Of a stretch of 64,000 bases of DNA, positions 7,054 to 19,136 are shown piece by piece (the first letter of the stretch is position 1; the number at the start of each line of letters is the position of its first letter). The stretch is from an uncultured Bdellovibrionales bacterium (GTDB lineage Bacteria > Patescibacteriota > Minisyncoccia > Moranbacterales > UBA1568), in the NCBI GenBank assembly GCA_964530135.1, contig CAZGXN010000006.1, forward strand, positions 5,396 to 69,395, written 5' to 3'. Under the pieces are notes generated by a model. That model was given only the letters and a program-made list of their open reading frames with translations, ran no database searches and was not told the origin of the DNA. A program made the position numbers and the translations under genes.

Positions 7054-8700
<1,647 letters not shown>

Positions 8701-8822: not shown

Positions 8823-9914
8823 TTAGACCGCCTCACTCGTTACCTCGGAAGAGCCGGGGAGAAAACAGAGTTTGGCATTCTTTTTTCCTTTCTCACAGCC
8901 CACCTCTTTGTTCTCAATCATGTCCTTCAATATTTTCTGGACAAACTTTCCTCCGACTTCTTCGGCTATCTTTACTTGATCCACGATCACCATCATCGGA
9001 AGCCTCTCCTCACTTTCGGTCAGGAGATGGAGAATAGTCTCTTTGATCTGACTTGCCTTCTCTGCTTCTCCTGAGTGGTTGCCAGAGTACATGAACGAAA
9101 CTTTTCCTTCCTCTTTTACAACCACAATCTCGAAAGCTGGCGTCTCCTCATCTACTCGGAGCTTCGGCTGTTCGAATACTAGAACGCCTTTCATATCCCT
9201 ATCCTTTCTAACGGAGATATGCGAATCAACTGCCGCTGAGATATCAGATGATCCACGCATTTTATTTTGTGCAGACGACCTGATGAGTCCCTCTTTTCTT
9301 TCGTGATGCGTCAGTATCACGGTTCTGCCATTTTGGTTAAACTTTTTGATTGCTTTGAATACAGTGGACATTTGGGTTGCGTCATTCTCATTCCCACTAT
9401 GGATCCTCACAAGTGAATCGAAAAATATCGTATCGATGTTATTCCTTTCGCACATGCTCAGAATTCTTTTGATCCAAGCTTCTTTGTCGACTGCAACCCC
9501 CTCTTGGGAAAGGAAGTAGATAGGGGAGTCGCTTGTAGCTCCTAGGAGACTGGCTCGTTCTTGGAGTAAGCGTAGGTGATTTTCCTCATCCACAATGAGA
9601 ACAGATGACTTAGGGCATTCGAACTGGCCAAGGAACTTTTCTCCTTTTGTCATGGAGATCCCCATGAGCAGGAGGAGCCAAGTCTTATAGTTGCCCGGAG
9701 GACCAGAGAGAATGGTGATGCCTTGATGAGGGACGAGTTTATCAATTGCCCATCTACTCTCTGGGAACTTCATAGCGAGCAGCTGTCCCATGGATATAAG
9801 TTCGGGGAATTCAACTTGCTTCTTTGGTTTACTGACGACGGTCGGTAGAGGATCGCTTTTCCTTTTTGCAACCTCTTCACCGAGTGCCAAAACCCTTTCT
9901 TGAATATGCTTCAT
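8823..9914 (-). CDS. RecA-like P-loop ATPase of the AAA_25 / DnaB-C-terminal-like type, probable mobile-element replication protein
   Basis: WAIDKLVPHQGITILSGPPGNYKTWLLLLMG (Walker A variant), VLIVDEEN (Walker B), FFDSLVRIHSGNEND. Confidence 0.55.
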   Translation of the reverse strand: MKHIQERVLALGEEVAKRKSDPLPTVVSKPKKQVEFPELISMGQLLAMKFPESRWAIDKLVPHQGITILSGPPGNYKTWLLLLMGISMTKGEKFLGQFECPKSSVLIVDEENHLRLLQERASLLGATSDSPIYFLSQEGVAVDKEAWIKRILSMCERNNIDTIFFDSLVRIHSGNENDATQMSTVFKAIKKFNQNGRTVILTHHERKEGLIRSSAQNKMRGSSDISAAVDSHISVRKDRDMKGVLVFEQPKLRVDEETPAFEIVVVKEEGKVSFMYSGNHSGEAEKASQIKETILHLLTESEERLPMMVIVDQVKIAEEVGGKFVQKILKDMIENKEVGCEKGKKNAKLCFLPGSSEVTSEAV

Positions 9915-10134: not shown

Positions 10135-11037
10135 CTACGGATTGAATACCCAGCCAGATTCCCTATGATTCAAAATATGGTTTTTGCCACTTTTCTTTTT
10201 AAGAACCTGTCTCAAGGCACTCACATACTTTGATACGGTTGGTTTCTGAATACTTGCCCAATCATCTCCAGTGCTTACCGCATCTTTTACATCATCTTCG
10301 TTCCAGATGCTTTTTTCGCCTTTGATAAACATGCGCGCAAGCATATTTAACTGTTGTCTCATTTCGATTATCTCTCCTTGATATCTTACGGATCCATCAT
10401 TGTAAAAGGCAAAGTCGCCAGAGCTATACTCTTTATGGAGATCTTCCCTAACTAAAACCAGGCTTCTTGTCGTTGTAGGTTTTGGTTTATATTCAAGTAC
10501 GGTTTTGATTACAATACTCCAAGGACTTAGAAGTAGTATAGAGAAAGATTTAACGGCGATAATGCCATCTTTTTTGAGCCACGTTAGAGCGTCAATGAAA
10601 TCAATATGTCCATAATCTTCTTGCTGAAAAGATACGACGCTTGCAATTTCATTCCATACAAATGGAGGATAATTCTTATCTTTCGGCATGAGCGTAGTTG
10701 TATACACCAAAGGGATTCGGTTTATTTCGAATCTTTCCGAAAGGCTGTTTAAAGATTTTGTGAGACTGTTCCTGCCCTTATTGAGAGAGTAGGGCGTTGA
10801 GTTATAAAAGTCTATCAGGGGCTTGAGCAACTCTATTTTTTCAGGGTTCTCAGACAGTATCTCATTTACAATCGGAAGCATTTCATCAAGATCTGGGGAC
10901 CAGTTTGAGTCAGCCTCAATCTTTCGGTAGGACGCATTGCCTTTGCTGTCATGGGATTCAATTTCCGTTCCAAGCTTGGCAAAGAATTCGACTATAAGCT
11001 TTTTCTGACTTTCGTTAAACATAGTGGCACAAGTCAC
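10135..11037 (-). CDS. protein with C-terminal OmpR/PhoB-type winged-helix DNA-binding domain, N-terminal region unknown (possible regulator or replication initiator of the island)
   Basis: C-terminus TVSKYVSALRQVLKKK...HILNHRESGWVFNP matches the Trans_reg_C wing pattern (hIsrLRkkl...I.TvRG.GY.h). Confidence 0.45.
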   Translation of the reverse strand: MTCATMFNESQKKLIVEFFAKLGTEIESHDSKGNASYRKIEADSNWSPDLDEMLPIVNEILSENPEKIELLKPLIDFYNSTPYSLNKGRNSLTKSLNSLSERFEINRIPLVYTTTLMPKDKNYPPFVWNEIASVVSFQQEDYGHIDFIDALTWLKKDGIIAVKSFSILLLSPWSIVIKTVLEYKPKPTTTRSLVLVREDLHKEYSSGDFAFYNDGSVRYQGEIIEMRQQLNMLARMFIKGEKSIWNEDDVKDAVSTGDDWASIQKPTVSKYVSALRQVLKKKSGKNHILNHRESGWVFNP

Positions 11038-11873: not shown

Positions 11874-12390
11874 AGCTTTATTTTGGGTACCCACTGCATG
11901 GGTGGGTCATATTAGTGGTTTGGATTGGTATAGTAATTTATGGCATGCACGCTAAAATCAATGATCCATCGCCGAGTTGCTTCCTTGATCCAAGGTCGAG
12001 TTTCGGGGATGAATGTGATGAGTAGCTTATGCTTTCGATAGATGAGTGTAGGGAGTTAATATCAGGCAGTGAAAAGTTCACCGACAAGCAGGTAGAAGAG
12101 ATTAGGGAAGATCTTTACGGTTTGGCTGAGCTAGCACTCGAGAGCTATTTTAAGAAGAAAGGGAAGGCTAGTAGGCTTGAGGAAGCCTAACTTTTCCCTA
12201 TTAATAGGGGATGTACAGAAGGAAGAATTTGTGGCATACTTGGAGCAAATAGAAATAAATACCACCCTAAAAATACTCGAAGTACGGAAAGAGCCATAGA
12301 AGGATTATACTAACCCAACTATTCCACGCTCCGCACCTTTGAAAAGCGGGGTGTTTTATTTTATAAGTATGAAAATTGAAAATCTAGGCT

Positions 12391-13311
12391 ATGTATAAAA
12401 TACTTTCTATCGATGGTGGAGGAATCAAAGGTGTGTTTCCCGCCTCTTTTCTTGCCTCAGTTGAAGAGACTCTAGGAGAGGATATTGCAGAGTACTTTGA
12501 TTTAATTGTAGGAACTTCGACAGGAGGCATCATTGCTATTGCGCTTGGATTAGGTATCAGCCCTAGAGATATTCTTAGTTTCTACGAAAAACATGGCCCG
12601 CAGATATTCAAGGGAAATAGTATTTACCGAATGCTCCGGCATTTTGGATACCCGAAATACGAAAGAGAACCTTTGGAGAAGGCTCTTAGGGAGATCTTTG
12701 GAGACAGGAAATTAGGTGATAGCAGTAAGAGGCTAGTTATTCCAAGTTTTAATCTTAGTACTGGAGAGGTGTATGTTTATAAGACTGCACACCATGAGAG
12801 GCTCCAGAGGGACTATAAGGAATTTGCGGTTGATGTTGCCTTAGCGACATCTGCCGCTCCCACATATTTTCCTACGTTTACAACATCTGCAGAAATTCCT
12901 CTCGTAGATGGGGGAATATGGGCGAATAATCCCATGGGGATGAGTGCTGTGGAGGGAATAGGGATACTTTCTTGGCCAAGGGAGGAGATAAAAATACTGA
13001 GCATCGGTTGCACCGCTGAGACTTTAAATGTGAGCAATGATGGGGGAAAGATTCCGTGGGCATTAAAGCTCGCTGATGTTTTTATGGCCTCACAATCTTC
13101 TGCTTCCTTGGGAACCGCACAGCTCTTAGTAGGACACGAAAATGTAAAGAGAATTAATCCCGTAGTCCCAAATCGTCGATTCGGTATTGATGTAGTCAAG
13201 GGAATCAGTGCTCTTAAAGGGCTAGGATCTTCAGAGGCAAGAAAAGAGTATCCGAACATTCAAATATTTTTTCAAGAAAAGGCAGAATCATTTGAGCCGA
13301 TTTACCGATAA
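12391..13311 (+). CDS. patatin-like phospholipase (CapV-like candidate effector)
   Basis: Oxyanion hole SIDGGGIKG, nucleophile elbow GTSTGG, catalytic Asp in VDGG (patatin Ser-Asp dyad). Confidence 0.85.
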   Translation: MYKILSIDGGGIKGVFPASFLASVEETLGEDIAEYFDLIVGTSTGGIIAIALGLGISPRDILSFYEKHGPQIFKGNSIYRMLRHFGYPKYEREPLEKALREIFGDRKLGDSSKRLVIPSFNLSTGEVYVYKTAHHERLQRDYKEFAVDVALATSAAPTYFPTFTTSAEIPLVDGGIWANNPMGMSAVEGIGILSWPREEIKILSIGCTAETLNVSNDGGKIPWALKLADVFMASQSSASLGTAQLLVGHENVKRINPVVPNRRFGIDVVKGISALKGLGSSEARKEYPNIQIFFQEKAESFEPIYR

Positions 13312-14716
13312 AATTATGAAGCTTGAAAAAGTATTTAATTATTTTCTGGAGAACGTAGTAAATTTGAATAAGAGTAGATTTGATGTGGCTGAGGCTGGAA
13401 TAGATACTATTTCAAGTATTCTAGAGAACGATGATGTTTTTGGAGAACTATTTGTTGGTGCAGAACCACAAGGATCTTTTAGGCAGGAAACAATTATTAA
13501 ACCTGTGGATGCAGGAAAGGATTTTGATGTCGATTTATTGTTTGAAGTGGTGCCAGTAGACGGATGGGAACCAAAAGATTATCTTTTAAATTTATCTTCC
13601 CAGTTGAAGAAAATACCAAGGTACGAAAAACTTGTTGATACGAGAGGAAAAACACGTTGTGTAACCATAGACTATGAAAGTGATTTTCACATCGACATAG
13701 TGCCTACGGTTCAAACCGATTCTGGTAACGTTATTTTCAATAGAGAGACCAATGAAGTAGAGCCAACCGACGGAGATGGATATGCTCAATGGTTTACGAG
13801 TAAGAATGAAGTTACGGGAAAGAAACTTTTGGTGAAAGTTGTTCGACTGATTAAGTATATTCGGGATGCAGATAAAAAGTTTGATGCAAAATCTATTCTA
13901 CTGACGACGTTGCTCGGTAACCAAGTTTTTTATGATGATGAAAGAGCTAAGTTCTACCCAGATTTGCCGACAGCGTTTGTGGTTATTCTTTCTCGCCTAG
14001 ATGCTTTTCTGCAGGCAAACCCTACGATGCCAGAGATTGGAAACCCTGTTTTACCTACAGAGCCTTCTTTTAATCGGAAATGGGATCAAGAGAAATATGA
14101 GAAATTTCGCAGTAGTATCCACGAATATTCTTTAAATGCTATAGATGCTATTCAAGAGCCTAGCGAAGAAAAATCTTTGCAAAAGTGGCAGAAGATTTTT
14201 GGAGAAAAATTTAGAATCCCTAATACCCAAAGTACTTTAGCAGTGAGGGAATCTTTTCCTCTAGGATTTGTAATCGGAGACTATTCCCATAGGATCAAAC
14301 TTTCTGATATTGGAATTAGTAGCTCTGTGTCGCGTCACATCCCTATTAGAATAAGTGCATCGTTATATTTTGGACTGTCTGATACAAAAGAAATGAATCG
14401 TAGATTTCAGCGAACTCTTGTGAGCGGTACCGAAGTTCCTCCTATGCACTGGATAAAGTATGAGATAAAAACTCCAGTTGAGCACGGACAGGAGGTGTAT
14501 TGGCAGGTTGTTAACACCGGAGCTCATGCGCGCGAAAAGGGCCAATTAAGAGGAGGTATTGAATATGGTGGACTGGTAAAGTGGGAAAGAAGTCTTTATA
14601 CAGGAGTGCATTGGGTGGAGTGCTACTTGGTAGATTCAGTTAATAGGGAATGCGTAGGGAAAAGTGATCCATTTTTTGTTGTATTTAATAATTCCAGCTT
14701 TTCATTCCGATTATAG
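13292..14716 (+). CDS. cGAS/DncV-like nucleotidyltransferase (CD-NTase-like, Pol-beta superfamily); overlaps patatin gene by 20 nt
   Basis: QGSFRQETIIKP...DFDVDLLF (GS then [DE]h[DE]h) and third acidic residue in DFHIDIVP about 55 aa downstream; about 220-aa C-terminal extension of unknown fold. Confidence 0.55.
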   Translation: MSRFTDKIMKLEKVFNYFLENVVNLNKSRFDVAEAGIDTISSILENDDVFGELFVGAEPQGSFRQETIIKPVDAGKDFDVDLLFEVVPVDGWEPKDYLLNLSSQLKKIPRYEKLVDTRGKTRCVTIDYESDFHIDIVPTVQTDSGNVIFNRETNEVEPTDGDGYAQWFTSKNEVTGKKLLVKVVRLIKYIRDADKKFDAKSILLTTLLGNQVFYDDERAKFYPDLPTAFVVILSRLDAFLQANPTMPEIGNPVLPTEPSFNRKWDQEKYEKFRSSIHEYSLNAIDAIQEPSEEKSLQKWQKIFGEKFRIPNTQSTLAVRESFPLGFVIGDYSHRIKLSDIGISSSVSRHIPIRISASLYFGLSDTKEMNRRFQRTLVSGTEVPPMHWIKYEIKTPVEHGQEVYWQVVNTGAHAREKGQLRGGIEYGGLVKWERSLYTGVHWVECYLVDSVNRECVGKSDPFFVVFNNSSFSFRL

Positions 14717-14735
14717 TGTCTATTAAATACTGCTT

Positions 14736-15662
14736 ATGAAACTCGTAATTGAGTGTTTAGTGGAGTCTAATATTAGGCTTGGTAGTGAATTAAGCATTGA
14801 AAAAGAAGGAAAACTTTTTACATTCTTGGTAAACTCGGAAGGTGCTCTTGAAAAAATTAAAGTGCTTACGCCCATCTCTTATCCGGAGAGGTTTTATTCA
14901 GAAGTTAAAACAAACAGTCCATCTCCCTCTCAGCATGAAATAATTCTTCGAAAGGACGATGATTTGATAGATTCTGTAATTGAAGAACTACAGTCATTGG
15001 AATCTAGTCTCGCTTTTACATATCAAGTCCGAAAATTCCATTGGAATACCCTACAAATAGACCTAGTATGCGAAACTACGGAAGAAAGAAATAGAAACAG
15101 CGTAGTGAGTCTTAAGATGGAGAGCAGGTATCCAGAGTATCCAGTGATAGTAAGTGATGAAGATATGCGCTCTCTAGTCCTTGGGCTTGAGAAGTATAAA
15201 AGCCTCAGCATCTATAAGTCTTTTTACAGAGAGGGGCACAATGATTTTACGTCGTTCAGATACATAAACGCTTTCTACAACTATTACTTTATATTGGAGG
15301 GGATGTTTAGTGGTGGTGAAACACGCAACACAAAAGTAGAGCAAGAGTTTTATAAATCAGAAATACTAACAAGGCATGTGCAGGAGCTTATACAGATTTT
15401 GGAAAAGAAGCATCCAAGACATCTGAAGAACATTAAGAAAATGTTGGATAAGAGAAACCAAGAATTAAGTGTGAAGGGGATTATATCTCTCATCGTAAAA
15501 GTTCGTGGGGATTTGCATCATTTTTTCAATAATAAAAATAAAATTGAGCCAACTCCGTTTAATCAGAAAGCCTTTGAGTCAATTGCTTTAGTAATGCTTT
15601 TTCTATCGTGTAGTTCTATTCTAGGAAGAGTAGTTGAGATAAATCAAGAAAAAAATATATAG
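14736..15662 (+). CDS. hypothetical protein, third gene of the patatin-NTase operon, no recognisable motif
   Basis: 20-nt gap from the NTase gene; no Walker motifs, no E1/E2 Cys motifs, no HORMA-like features seen. Confidence 0.45.
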   Translation: MKLVIECLVESNIRLGSELSIEKEGKLFTFLVNSEGALEKIKVLTPISYPERFYSEVKTNSPSPSQHEIILRKDDDLIDSVIEELQSLESSLAFTYQVRKFHWNTLQIDLVCETTEERNRNSVVSLKMESRYPEYPVIVSDEDMRSLVLGLEKYKSLSIYKSFYREGHNDFTSFRYINAFYNYYFILEGMFSGGETRNTKVEQEFYKSEILTRHVQELIQILEKKHPRHLKNIKKMLDKRNQELSVKGIISLIVKVRGDLHHFFNNKNKIEPTPFNQKAFESIALVMLFLSCSSILGRVVEINQEKNI

Positions 15663-15668
15663 CTTTGT

Positions 15669-16502
15669 ATGGATAAAGATCAAATAGAAAAAGTTCTCCT
15701 AGAAAAGTCTAGGATAGGCGGCCTCTTAACTGAGCTAGAAGTGGCCGGAATCTTTAAAAAGCATGGCTTTAGGTTAGAGCTCAATAAGTACTATAACGAC
15801 ATCGATGAAGGAAAAGGCAGAGAGATTGATTTGGTCGCCACATTCTCTAGGAAAACAGATACAGATGAAGAAGATTATCTTGAGATGGTTTTTAAATTTA
15901 TTGTTGAGATAAAGAGATCTGAAAAGCCCTGGGTCTTCACAACATTTCCGGCAGATGATTTTCATGAAAAAGAGAGTCCATTTTTTAGATTTGAAAGTGA
16001 AAACTTTGATAAGTTAACTCTGGCAGAAGCTTTTTTTGGTACCCTTAAAGAGATTGAAGATGAAAGGTTGGGAAGAAACTTTGCTGTAATAGATCCTAAA
16101 GAGCAAAAGAAAGAAAATGATACCCCTATCTTCTCTGCATTATTCTCTGTGGCCAAGGCCTTTTATGCAGAGCATTTCTTAGACAGTTATATAAAGCAAG
16201 GGAAGGATAAATTGTCTGAAAAGATATTCGAGTACCATGAACTGTTAGTTGTTGTCGACGCACCAATTTACGAAGTGTTTATCGAAGATGGTAAGGAAAA
16301 GATCCAAAGAGTTAGTGAGCTTCTTGTCGCTTTCAACTACACATCACCTAAATATGATGAGACCAGTGTATATATCATACGGGTTATAGCAAAAGAGAGT
16401 TTGGACGACTTCCTAGGTATGAGGATGGAAAGTTTCAGAAAGATATCCGAAGAGATTCTTGAGAAAGAGGGTGGAGGCAAGCCTTTTGATGAAGAGGCTT
16501 AG
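15669..16502 (+). CDS. hypothetical protein, fourth gene of the operon; possible PD-(D/E)xK nuclease-like core
   Basis: 7-nt gap from previous gene; GREIDLVATF ... about 25 aa ... IVEIKRSEKPWVF fits a D...ExK pattern (weak, by eye). Confidence 0.4.
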   Translation: MDKDQIEKVLLEKSRIGGLLTELEVAGIFKKHGFRLELNKYYNDIDEGKGREIDLVATFSRKTDTDEEDYLEMVFKFIVEIKRSEKPWVFTTFPADDFHEKESPFFRFESENFDKLTLAEAFFGTLKEIEDERLGRNFAVIDPKEQKKENDTPIFSALFSVAKAFYAEHFLDSYIKQGKDKLSEKIFEYHELLVVVDAPIYEVFIEDGKEKIQRVSELLVAFNYTSPKYDETSVYIIRVIAKESLDDFLGMRMESFRKISEEILEKEGGGKPFDEEA

Positions 16503-16609
16503 GTTGATATGTATGTTTCCTCTAGTAATTCTCTCGTCTGCTTGAAGCACATCTCGAAGTTTGGATACGAGGGAAGGGGATCAGAATTTCCGAAAACATC
16601 CCATCTTGT

Positions 16610-16678
16610 GAGCAGCTAAAAACAGGGCTTAAGTGAGCCTTGTTTTTTGTTATCCAAAGTGAGGGTTAGAACCAAGAG
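16610..16678 (+). repeat. att-like motif copy 2: gagcagctaaaaacagggcttaagtgagccttgttttttgttatccaaagtgagggttagaaccaagag
   Basis: About 85% identical over ~70 nt to copy at 24817-24888; contains tRNA 3'-end GAGCA + hairpin + TTTTTTGTTA. Confidence 0.55.
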
Positions 16679-16782
16679 ATAGACAAAAGAATAAAAATGT
16701 AGCACAATGTCCTGTTGCAAGTTAATGACTTTTGCAGCAGCTATACTCCTAGCGAAAAGGAGGATTCCACAGAGGAGTTGCC

Positions 16783-17217
16783 ATGGCCACAAGAGGCTGC
16801 GGTATCGTTTTCTACAACCCACGGAAAGACGCGGTTCTGGTCTTTCGTCGGGACAACAAGGACTGGATTCCCTTCCCGAACATGCTCGACCTCCTCGGTG
16901 GGCATGTGGAAGAAGGAGAAACCCCGGAAGAGGCCGCCGTTCGTGAAATGGCCGAAGAACTCATCGACCTGCGAACGGGACAGGAATATGTGTTGGAGCG
17001 GCACCAGCTGTTCCTTCGCTACACCGATGCACGGGATTGCGAGCAAAGCATTTTCGTGTGCGACGTGAACTTCGACCTCACGGACCTGCGTCTTCTCGAA
17101 GGCAAGGAACTGGTCTGGGTGTCACGGCAGGAAATCGAAGATGGTCTCAAGATGGCCTTCGAGTTCGGGAACGTGCTGAAGCAGTTCTTTGCAAATCGGT
17201 CCGCTGAAGCCATCTGA
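16783..17217 (+). CDS. NUDIX hydrolase
   Basis: Nudix box GGHVEEGETPEEAAVREMAEEL; markedly GC-rich relative to neighbours. Confidence 0.75.
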   Translation: MATRGCGIVFYNPRKDAVLVFRRDNKDWIPFPNMLDLLGGHVEEGETPEEAAVREMAEELIDLRTGQEYVLERHQLFLRYTDARDCEQSIFVCDVNFDLTDLRLLEGKELVWVSRQEIEDGLKMAFEFGNVLKQFFANRSAEAI

Positions 17218-17372: not shown

Positions 17373-17554
17373 TAAATGAAAAAAAGTCCTCGCTTGAGGG
17401 TTTTTTTCATTTCTATTCAAGGCGACAGGATGAGAACGGGAAGGGGTCGGGAAACGGGAGTTTCCAGTTTGGGGTGACCGAGTCCTCGAGGGCTAGAGGG
17501 CGGAAGTCCTATAGAGTGCATCCGCCAGCTGGCGGAGAGCAGTGAGTGTTCCTA

Positions 17555-17606
17555 TCGCCGGAGCAACTAAAACAAGGCTGTGAAAAGCCTTGTTTTTTGT
17601 TACCCT
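17555..17606 (+). repeat. att-like motif copy 3: tcgccggagcaactaaaacaaggctgtgaaaagccttgttttttgttaccc
   Basis: Exact tRNA-Asn 3' end tcgccggagca followed by terminator-like hairpin. Confidence 0.55.
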
Positions 17607-18495: not shown

Positions 18496-18543
18496 GGGAG
18501 CAAAGAAAATAGAGGCTTTTTTGAGCCTCTATTTTTGTTACCC
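18496..18543 (+). repeat. att-like motif copy 4 (diverged): ggggagcaaagaaaatagaggcttttttgagcctctatttttgttaccc
   Basis: Same architecture gGAGCA - hairpin - TTTTTGTTACCC. Confidence 0.4.
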
Positions 18544-18593: not shown

Positions 18594-19136
18594 GTGCAAA
18601 CTATGTCAGACATTCAAGAATGGGAAGAGCTTTCCCGTGAAACAATTTTTGAGAAATACCGACGTGGTATCGAGAAAGTAGTTTTCCGATTGCCAGACGG
18701 CTCTGAGCGCGATTTTTATCTCAAGAAAGAGGATAGCTCGATTTGTGTTCTGGCTTTGACGGAGACGAAGGAGGTTATCCTTGCGAAACAGTTCCGTCCA
18801 GGACCAAAGAAGGTGTTGCTAGAACTTCCAGGAGGTGGAATGGAAAAAGGAGAAACTCCAGAAGAGGCCATAGCGAGAGAGCTTTTAGAAGAGACGGGTT
18901 ATGCGGGAAATATCAAGCGGGTTACTCGGGCGTATGAGTGTGGTTATTCGCCGATGCATCGCTACTGCTTTGTAGCTACAGATTGTAAGAATGTCGCCGA
19001 GCCCAAGCTTGATGATGGAGAGTTTATTGAAGTTGTACTACTCCCATTAGATGAGTTTCGAAGCCTTCTACAAAGCGGAGAGCTTACCGATGTAGAGGTC
19101 GGCTATCTGGGTCTTGATTATCTTGGATTACTTTGA
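18594..19136 (+). CDS. NUDIX hydrolase (ADP-ribose pyrophosphatase-like)
   Basis: Nudix box LPGGGMEKGETPEEAIARELLEETGY. Confidence 0.75.
   Translation: MQTMSDIQEWEELSRETIFEKYRRGIEKVVFRLPDGSERDFYLKKEDSSICVLALTETKEVILAKQFRPGPKKVLLELPGGGMEKGETPEEAIARELLEETGYAGNIKRVTRAYECGYSPMHRYCFVATDCKNVAEPKLDDGEFIEVVLLPLDEFRSLLQSGELTDVEVGYLGLDYLGLL

Follow-up and report, generated by a model that had tools for sequence, protein, structure and literature searches.

We analysed a stretch of 64,000 nucleotides (nt) of contig CAZGXN010000006.1, from an uncultured bacterium placed by GTDB in the Patescibacteriota (the whole stretch is called the window below), with emphasis on four adjacent genes of its forward strand, numbered here genes 1 to 4, that lie in a mobile island next to a tRNA-Asn gene. 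By profile and motif, genes 1 and 2 form a complete cyclic-oligonucleotide-based antiphage signalling system (CBASS) of the canonical Type I, composed of a patatin-like phospholipase and a cGAS/DncV-like nucleotidyltransferase (CD-NTase). An earlier note on this DNA had proposed that genes 3 and 4 belong to the same system as a non-canonical accessory module, a sensor or a second effector; we found no conserved linkage of either gene to a CD-NTase. We favour, with a probability of about 0.78, the reading that the cargo slot of the island is a defence-island patchwork in which three units independent of one another (the CBASS pair, gene 3 and gene 4) lie side by side, and not one four-gene system.

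The CBASS pair

Gene 1 scores 266.7 bits against NCBIfam NF041079 (CBASS_lipase, an equivalog model of the CBASS cGAMP-activated phospholipase, with a cutoff of 200) and matches the PADLOC phospholipase effector models with an E value of 5e-102 and Pfam Patatin with one of 2.6e-28. The patatin motifs that had been reported for it are all present, GGGIKG at 9, GTSTG at 41 and DGG at 173. These profiles and motifs identify gene 1 as CapV, the CBASS effector of the patatin-like phospholipase class. Gene 2 matches Pfam SMODS (PF18144, E 1.9e-24), the DncV-like NTase domain (PF21654, E 6.7e-8) and, over its full length, the PADLOC cyclase model PDLC00793 (E 1e-134). Regarding solved structures, the relationship is distant, the PDB matches being the CD-NTases CdnD and CdnG with E values of about 1e-8. 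The catalytic signature of the Pol-beta/CD-NTase type, also recognized earlier, is formed by G61-S62, D79/D81 and D135, each of them conserved in at least 97% of 120 homologs, and the SMODS and PADLOC cyclase matches identify the protein as a CD-NTase.

The C-terminal part of gene 2, about 220 amino acids (aa) that the earlier note had regarded as an extra region of unknown fold, turned out to be the normal helical lobe of CD-NTases (to about residue 315) followed by an AGS-C domain, because residues 352-463 match AGS_C (PF18134) with an E value of 3.7e-19 and 69.4 bits (cutoff 26.7). Every full-length gene 2 homolog among the matches listed has this domain, and the combination of SMODS and AGS_C is common, being found in 712 proteins at E values of 1e-30 or lower. 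The named matches belong to metagenome-assembled genomes (MAGs) of Moranbacteria, Parcubacteria, Gracilibacteria and Spirochaetota, and the nearest named relatives of the window cyclase come from Patescibacteria-type MAGs. About 40% of Type I CBASS have a cyclase with such an AGS-C fusion, and Type I operons reduced to the minimum of two genes suffice for defence (Richmond-Buccola et al., bioRxiv 10.1101/2023.05.21.541620).

The signature genes of types II to IV, namely Cap2/Cap3 (E1-E2/JAB), HORMA/TRIP13 and QueC/OGG-like genes, were not found in genes 3 and 4 by PADLOC and Pfam scans, in agreement with the earlier observation that these two genes have no canonical cap2/cap3 or HORMA/TRIP13 features. 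The flanking island genes encode a recombinase, an AAA_25 protein, a membrane protein and a NUDIX protein, and no type II-IV CBASS signature is among them. The pair resembles the Type I CapV systems, of which Vibrio cholerae DncV-CapV is the paradigm, in the adjacent capV-cdn genes, in a CapV above the NCBIfam equivalog cutoff and in the lack of type II-IV signature genes, and it resembles the Type I CD-NTase-AGS-C fusions in the catalytic GS/DxD/D residues and the C-terminal AGS-C. Profiles, motifs and the conserved linkage described below thus uphold the view that a patatin and a CD-NTase in a mobile island denote CBASS, and the system is one more Type I CapV/CD-NTase-AGS-C system of a well-known kind, its host being probably an uncultivated bacterium of groundwater type.

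Linkage and arrangement of the four genes

The patatin gene is located directly upstream of the cyclase gene in all five relative loci (L012 to L016), whose cyclases are 41-71% identical to gene 2, and the genes 3' of the capV-cdn pair differ among them. In L013 (71% identity) the contig ends after the pair; in L014 (69%) there is a 105-aa open reading frame (ORF) and then AAA_15 and RloB; L015 and L016 (59%) have unrelated proteins of 225 and 396 aa followed by gatC/gatA; and L012 (41%) has a UvrD helicase, a PD-(D/E)xK protein (PDDEXK_1) and a DNA methylase. Homologs of genes 3 and 4 were found in none of the five by tblastn and hidden Markov model (HMM) searches. From the side of gene 3, we sampled 43 metagenomic loci of its family (L017 to L059, 228 kb, retrieved with an 18-sequence alignment), and tblastn and HMM searches detected no cyclase, patatin or gene 4 homolog in any of them. 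From the side of gene 4, HMM searches of the seven loci with a homolog revealed no relative of the cyclase, the patatin or gene 3. No contigs other than those identical to the window (L006 to L009) were found to contain the four-gene block. A scan of the genome contigs for the cyclase returned a single locus. The four-gene arrangement is therefore not conserved in any of the three sets of relatives: the linkage holds for the patatin and the nucleotidyltransferase, in five of five, and fails for genes 3 and 4.

As the earlier note had described, the four ORFs are co-directional and closely packed, all on the forward strand. The spacing itself had to be corrected, since the gaps of 20 and 7 nt given before are, as measured here, gaps of 19 and 6 nt, and the overlap of 20 nt is most likely a gap of 4 nt. 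Gene 2 most likely starts at the ATG at 13316 and not at the TTG at 13292, because homologs and profiles align from residue 9, the homologs are 444-474 aa long and the public gene call has 466 aa; with the ATG start, gene 1 is followed by a 4-nt gap and the 20-nt overlap disappears. The G+C content is similarly low in the four genes (0.36-0.43). Of the terminator-like hairpins, the one that precedes capV by 37 nt and is followed by a T-run would shield the CBASS unit from transcription coming from upstream. The one 3' of gene 4, in a segment common to the window and a sister island described below, is likely the end of the transcription unit. As the gaps are this short and a terminator-like hairpin follows only gene 4, the four genes are probably co-transcribed, and their spacing makes this plausible.

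This operon-like layout, with gaps of 19 and 6 nt around gene 3 and a hairpin only after gene 4, is what would be expected if genes 3 and 4 were a lineage-specific accessory module of this CBASS, or extra effectors, sensors or regulators of it. The four genes also share one cargo segment and a similar low G+C content, and the PD-(D/E)xK fold assigned to gene 4 below is common to the cyclic-oligonucleotide-activated nucleases NucC, Can2 and Card1. However, we consider this explanation quite improbable. There is no co-occurrence beyond the copies of the window contig, and homologs of both genes stand alone in unrelated contexts; Pfam, PADLOC and NCBIfam scans revealed no SAVED, STING, CARF-like or other known cyclic-nucleotide sensor; and the PADLOC NucC models miss gene 4, whose structural likeness to NucC and Can2 does not extend beyond the generic nuclease core, Hjc and FokI being the closer matches. 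The lesson is that tight packing in a defence island does not denote a multi-gene system until conservation has been checked.

In the closest CBASS relatives, a gene for a Peptidase_S24 protein (LexA/CI-like, about 215 aa) lies just upstream of capV (L013 to L016, table 1), with identities of 92% and about 42% among the copies. The window locus differs from these nearest cyclase relatives in this respect, as no trace of the gene was detected in the window. The conserved S24 gene, a by-product of this analysis, may be a regulator of this CBASS subfamily.

Gene 3 and its family

Gene 3 has no significant sequence match in Pfam, NCBIfam, PADLOC, PHROGs or the PDB. Its own score against Pfam MauJ (PF17419) is 23.5 bits, below the cutoff of 28, and PDB sequences yielded nothing with either the single sequence or the family profile. 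The family is nevertheless sizeable: a word-indexed search found two relatives, and an exhaustive profile search yielded the representatives of 776 clusters, most of them of the full length of about 305 aa. It is absent from PADLOC 2023, and a scan of viral contigs with the family profile recovered no relatives. An alignment of 95 members, which share 21-42% identity with the protein of the window, shows no variation at E89, E188 and H262, and conservation of 90% or more at W103, F163, R165, E166, R257, G258, H261 and P274. The conserved R257-x4-H262 dyad is the signature of HEPN RNases (Rx4-6H). Among the same 95 members, 57 match MauJ (best E 1e-9), three match HEPN_Apea (E 0.0045) and one matches Ribonuc_2-5A. 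Based on these data, we infer with moderate confidence that gene 3 is a stand-alone HEPN RNase whose N-terminal domain has a sensor or regulatory role.

Compared with the HEPN RNases of abortive infection (Abi) and toxin systems (AbiD/F, AbiU2, AbiV, Apea-like HEPN and HEPN-MNT toxins), gene 3 has no significant match to a named family, and in the case of MauJ its own score stays below the cutoff. It adds an N-terminal beta-sheet (TBP-like) domain and the invariant E89 and E188. It has no antitoxin partner beside it and no PADLOC match. Nothing relevant turned up in the literature on MauJ in connection with HEPN or defence.

An all-against-all comparison of the 85 proteins neighbouring the family in the sampled loci identified no recurrent neighbour. 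Integrases, M78 peptidases, a transposase, a resolvase and methyltransferases are found among them, together with REase-ARP, AbiU, reverse transcriptase, TIR, CHAT, AIPR and NucC proteins, so that the family resides in a mobile-element or defence-island setting. The one JGI homolog on a larger contig adjoins an integrase and an SLFN/AlbA_2 protein. The family is a second by-product of this work, uncharacterised, HEPN-like and a candidate for single-gene defence.

Two details of these neighbourhoods are recorded here. One of the 85 proteins is a NucC-type nuclease (PADLOC E 1.8e-35) and one is Cas1_IIIb-like. Two are CapP-like M78 peptidases, and no cyclase is present.

Gene 4 and its family

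Gene 4 has no significant match in Pfam, NCBIfam, PADLOC or PHROGs, nor among PDB sequences, the latter searched with the single sequence and with the family profile, and Pfam gave noise only for all eight members of its family. This family is very rare, with eight clusters, seven of them non-self, among 5.8 billion proteins. The D...ExK pattern noticed earlier is present, and the word weak that had been applied to it does not hold, as E22, D54, E80 and K82 occur without exception in the eight members. Because of these invariant residues, gene 4 is assigned as a protein of the PD-(D/E)xK nuclease fold. A Foldseek comparison of its model with the PDB gave no structural match for the C-terminal part of about 170 residues (best E 0.028). 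Two candidate identities were rejected: a PADLOC match to PDC-M53A (E 0.012 over 40 residues) was discarded as noise, and a NucC-like identity was abandoned on the grounds given above, the missing PADLOC match and a likeness confined to the generic core.

Set against the solitary PD-(D/E)xK defence nucleases (those with an Hjc-like core, the FokI cleavage domain, McrC, HamA, Shedu SduA, NucC and Can2), gene 4 belongs, by sequence, to no family of Pfam, NCBIfam, PADLOC or PHROG. It differs from them also in the C-terminal domain without structural match, in the rarity of its family, and in having no conserved partner helicase, methylase or cyclase. Its homologs stand alone in six distinct contexts (L001 to L005, L010 and L011), where the neighbours include RibD_C, HicA, DUF5677, SocA_Panacea, dnaK and a tRNA-synthetase fragment. 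Gene 4 would be a rare solitary nuclease and, like gene 3, would as it stands not surprise the specialist.

The gap of 6 nt between genes 3 and 4, and the prediction of both as nucleases of types common in conflict systems, raise the alternative that the two form a separate system beside CBASS, either toxin-antitoxin-like or a new defence pair. We regard this as very improbable. The gene 4 HMM finds nothing in the 43 loci of gene 3 and the gene 3 HMM nothing in the seven loci of gene 4, and the families differ widely in size; as 776 clusters of gene 3 stand against eight of gene 4, the latter cannot be an obligate partner of the former.

Genes 3 and 4 might, as a further alternative, be unconnected with CBASS and also without a defence role, being selfish or addiction toxins, maintenance factors of the mobile element or decaying passengers. 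Neither gene has a PADLOC match, some homologs of gene 4 lie beside housekeeping genes (dnaK and the tRNA-synthetase fragment), and no cognate antitoxin or methylase is evident, all of which would be in line with such a role. It is unlikely, however, because residues of catalytic type are strictly conserved across diverged members of both families, which denotes purifying selection. In addition, genes of defence and of mobile elements abound around members of the gene 3 family, and both genes occupy the cargo slot of the present island, the sister of which holds another conflict-type protein, PIN-TPR-GreABC.

In one of the contexts of gene 4 (L010, 1-2239), the homolog P0009, 60% identical to gene 4, is preceded at a gap of 9 nt by an unrelated ORF of 252 aa, itself preceded by a protein of more than 447 aa with a weak PADLOC match to PDC-M58A (E 2e-4). 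The 252-aa ORF was considered as a relative of gene 3 and rejected, as BLASTP shows no similarity. This group of genes may be a different small defence cluster.

Proposed mechanism and points that weigh against it

By analogy with characterised systems, phage infection would activate the CD-NTase of the first unit, the fused AGS-C Ig-like domain probably tuning which phages are sensed. The enzyme would then make a cyclic di- or oligonucleotide signal, and this would bind CapV and turn on its patatin phospholipase activity. Degradation of the membrane by CapV would kill the cell before phage progeny are released, i.e. by abortive infection. The second unit, gene 3, would be an HEPN RNase that works by itself, of the kind seen in Abi or toxin systems, its N-terminal beta-sheet domain serving as the sensor or regulator. 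The third, gene 4, may be a DNA nuclease that likewise acts alone, such as a modification-dependent enzyme or one of the Abi type. The three units would probably be co-transcribed here, yet mutually independent in function. Of this picture, the sequences themselves show the families, the motifs, the missing linkage and the structure of the island, whereas the biochemical activities, the common transcription and the defence role of genes 3 and 4 are deduced.

Several points weigh against this patchwork of independent units. The tight packing on one strand, the lack of an internal terminator and the shared low G+C content fit a true operon too. Type I CBASS with two effectors are known (CdnG-CapV-Cap5 and CapV-DisA-like), and the C-terminal domain of gene 4, being without a match, might conceivably sense a ligand. 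The sample is also small, with five cyclase loci, of which L013 ends right after the cyclase, and seven gene 4 loci, mostly on short contigs. Since multi-effector Type I CBASS exist and few close relatives were sampled, a recent lineage-specific recruitment of genes 3 and 4 into this CBASS keeps a small probability. An HEPN RNase and a PD-(D/E)xK nuclease would then have been freshly captured into the CBASS unit and would work with it in this lineage, which we likewise hold to be rather improbable. In that event the cyclase product could control them as extra effectors through sensor domains of an unrecognised kind (the TBP-like N-terminal domain of gene 3 and the C-terminal domain of gene 4) or, alternatively, they could be a co-regulated back-up layer, and the locus would be a snapshot of a CBASS gaining new effectors. 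It is more likely that the gene 3 family is an undescribed, widespread family of single-gene HEPN defence.

The tRNA-Asn island and its sister

The setting in a mobile island, another claim of the earlier note, was borne out, and the tRNA-Asn gene, direct repeats, recombinase and a sister island allowed us to delimit it (table 1). The island is approximately 10.4 kb long, is bounded by 16-nt direct repeats that resemble attachment (att) sites and carries about 4.5 kb of cargo; its G+C content is 0.42, against 0.50 outside. The distal repeat is a candidate for the far border.

A sister element (L060 to L063) was found at the same chromosomal site, marked by tRNA-Asn, Peptidase_M15_4, sigma-70 and DnaG genes. 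Its backbone is the same (recombinase, AAA_25 and a protein of about 297 aa), with 83% nucleotide identity, and the same 16-nt repeat is present at both of its ends (L060 11574-11589 and 1375-1390). The cargo of the sister consists of an FtsK-like protein, a PIN-TPR-GreABC protein of 1312 aa and small ORFs, and tblastn found no relatives of genes 1 to 4 in L060 to L063. Nucleotide homology between the window and L060 ends at 12024 and restarts at 16524; therefore, the slot in which cargo is exchanged coincides with the four genes and a 53-aa ORF. The two sister islands at tRNA-Asn, clearly delimited and differing by a swap of their defence cargo, are a third by-product of the analysis.

Table 1. 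Features of the island in the window, and Peptidase_S24 genes of the relative CBASS loci. Positions are those of the window unless a locus is named.
Feature	Position	Strand	Evidence and remarks
tRNA-Asn(GTT)	7054..7126	+	ARAGORN; Rfam tRNA 73 bits; island integration site
Large serine recombinase, 533 aa, backbone	7099..8700	-	Pfam Resolvase + Recombinase; 83% nt identity to L060
Proximal att-like direct repeat, 16 nt	7112-7127	+	Repeat search; equals the tRNA-Asn 3' end
AAA_25 ATPase, 363 aa, backbone	8823..9914	-	PF13481 E 4e-25; conserved in sister island
300-aa protein, backbone	10135..11037	-	297-aa counterpart at same L060 position; weak Trans_reg_C match
Variable cargo segment (53-aa ORF and genes 1-4)	12025..16523	.	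blastn of window against L060
Terminator-like hairpin + T-run	12333..12354	+	37 nt upstream of capV; consensus scan only
Gene 1, capV	12391..13311	+	306 aa
Gene 2, CD-NTase (SMODS) with C-terminal AGS-C Ig-like domain	13316..14716	+	466 aa; alternative TTG start at 13292 (474 aa)
Gene 3, predicted N-terminal beta-sheet (TBP-like) and C-terminal MauJ/HEPN-like helical domain	14736..15662	+	308 aa; member of the ~305-aa family
Gene 4, predicted N-terminal PD-(D/E)xK nuclease domain and C-terminal alpha/beta domain	15669..16502	+	277 aa
Terminator-like hairpin (AAAACAGGGCT...AGCCTTGTTTTTTGTT)	16619..16655	+	3' of gene 4; repeat family D1; L060 alignment
Distal att-like repeat, 16 nt	17550..17565	+	15/16 identical; 2 matches vs 0.04 expected by chance
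Peptidase_S24 gene	L013 4401-5045		Upstream of capV
Peptidase_S24 gene	L014 2-607		Upstream of capV
Peptidase_S24 gene	L015 703-1356		Upstream of capV
Peptidase_S24 gene	L016 863-1516		Upstream of capV

At the proximal end of the island, 28 nt (7099-7126) are common to the recombinase ORF, at its stop-proximal end on the reverse strand, and to the tRNA-Asn gene, in its 3' part on the forward strand. At the distal end, a segment of 130 nt located 3' of gene 4 (16524-16653) matches L060 1563-1432, where it lies about 40 nt from the distal att. The clean att copy of the window is found about 900 nt further, past a NUDIX gene (16783-17217), and a degenerate att-like stretch is present at about 16714-16729, which suggests a decayed att and a tandem or secondary insertion. 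Two NUDIX hydrolase genes are located within 2.5 kb downstream of the cargo, at 16783-17217 and 18594-19136, the first of them inside the att-bounded island.

The terminator-like element AAAACAxGGCT...AGCCxTGTTTTTTGTTAyCC occurs in three copies in the window (16619-16655, 17569-17605 and 18507-18543). The copies are 70-100% identical, about 940-950 nt apart and each located 3' of a gene, and the second starts 3 nt past the distal att-like repeat.

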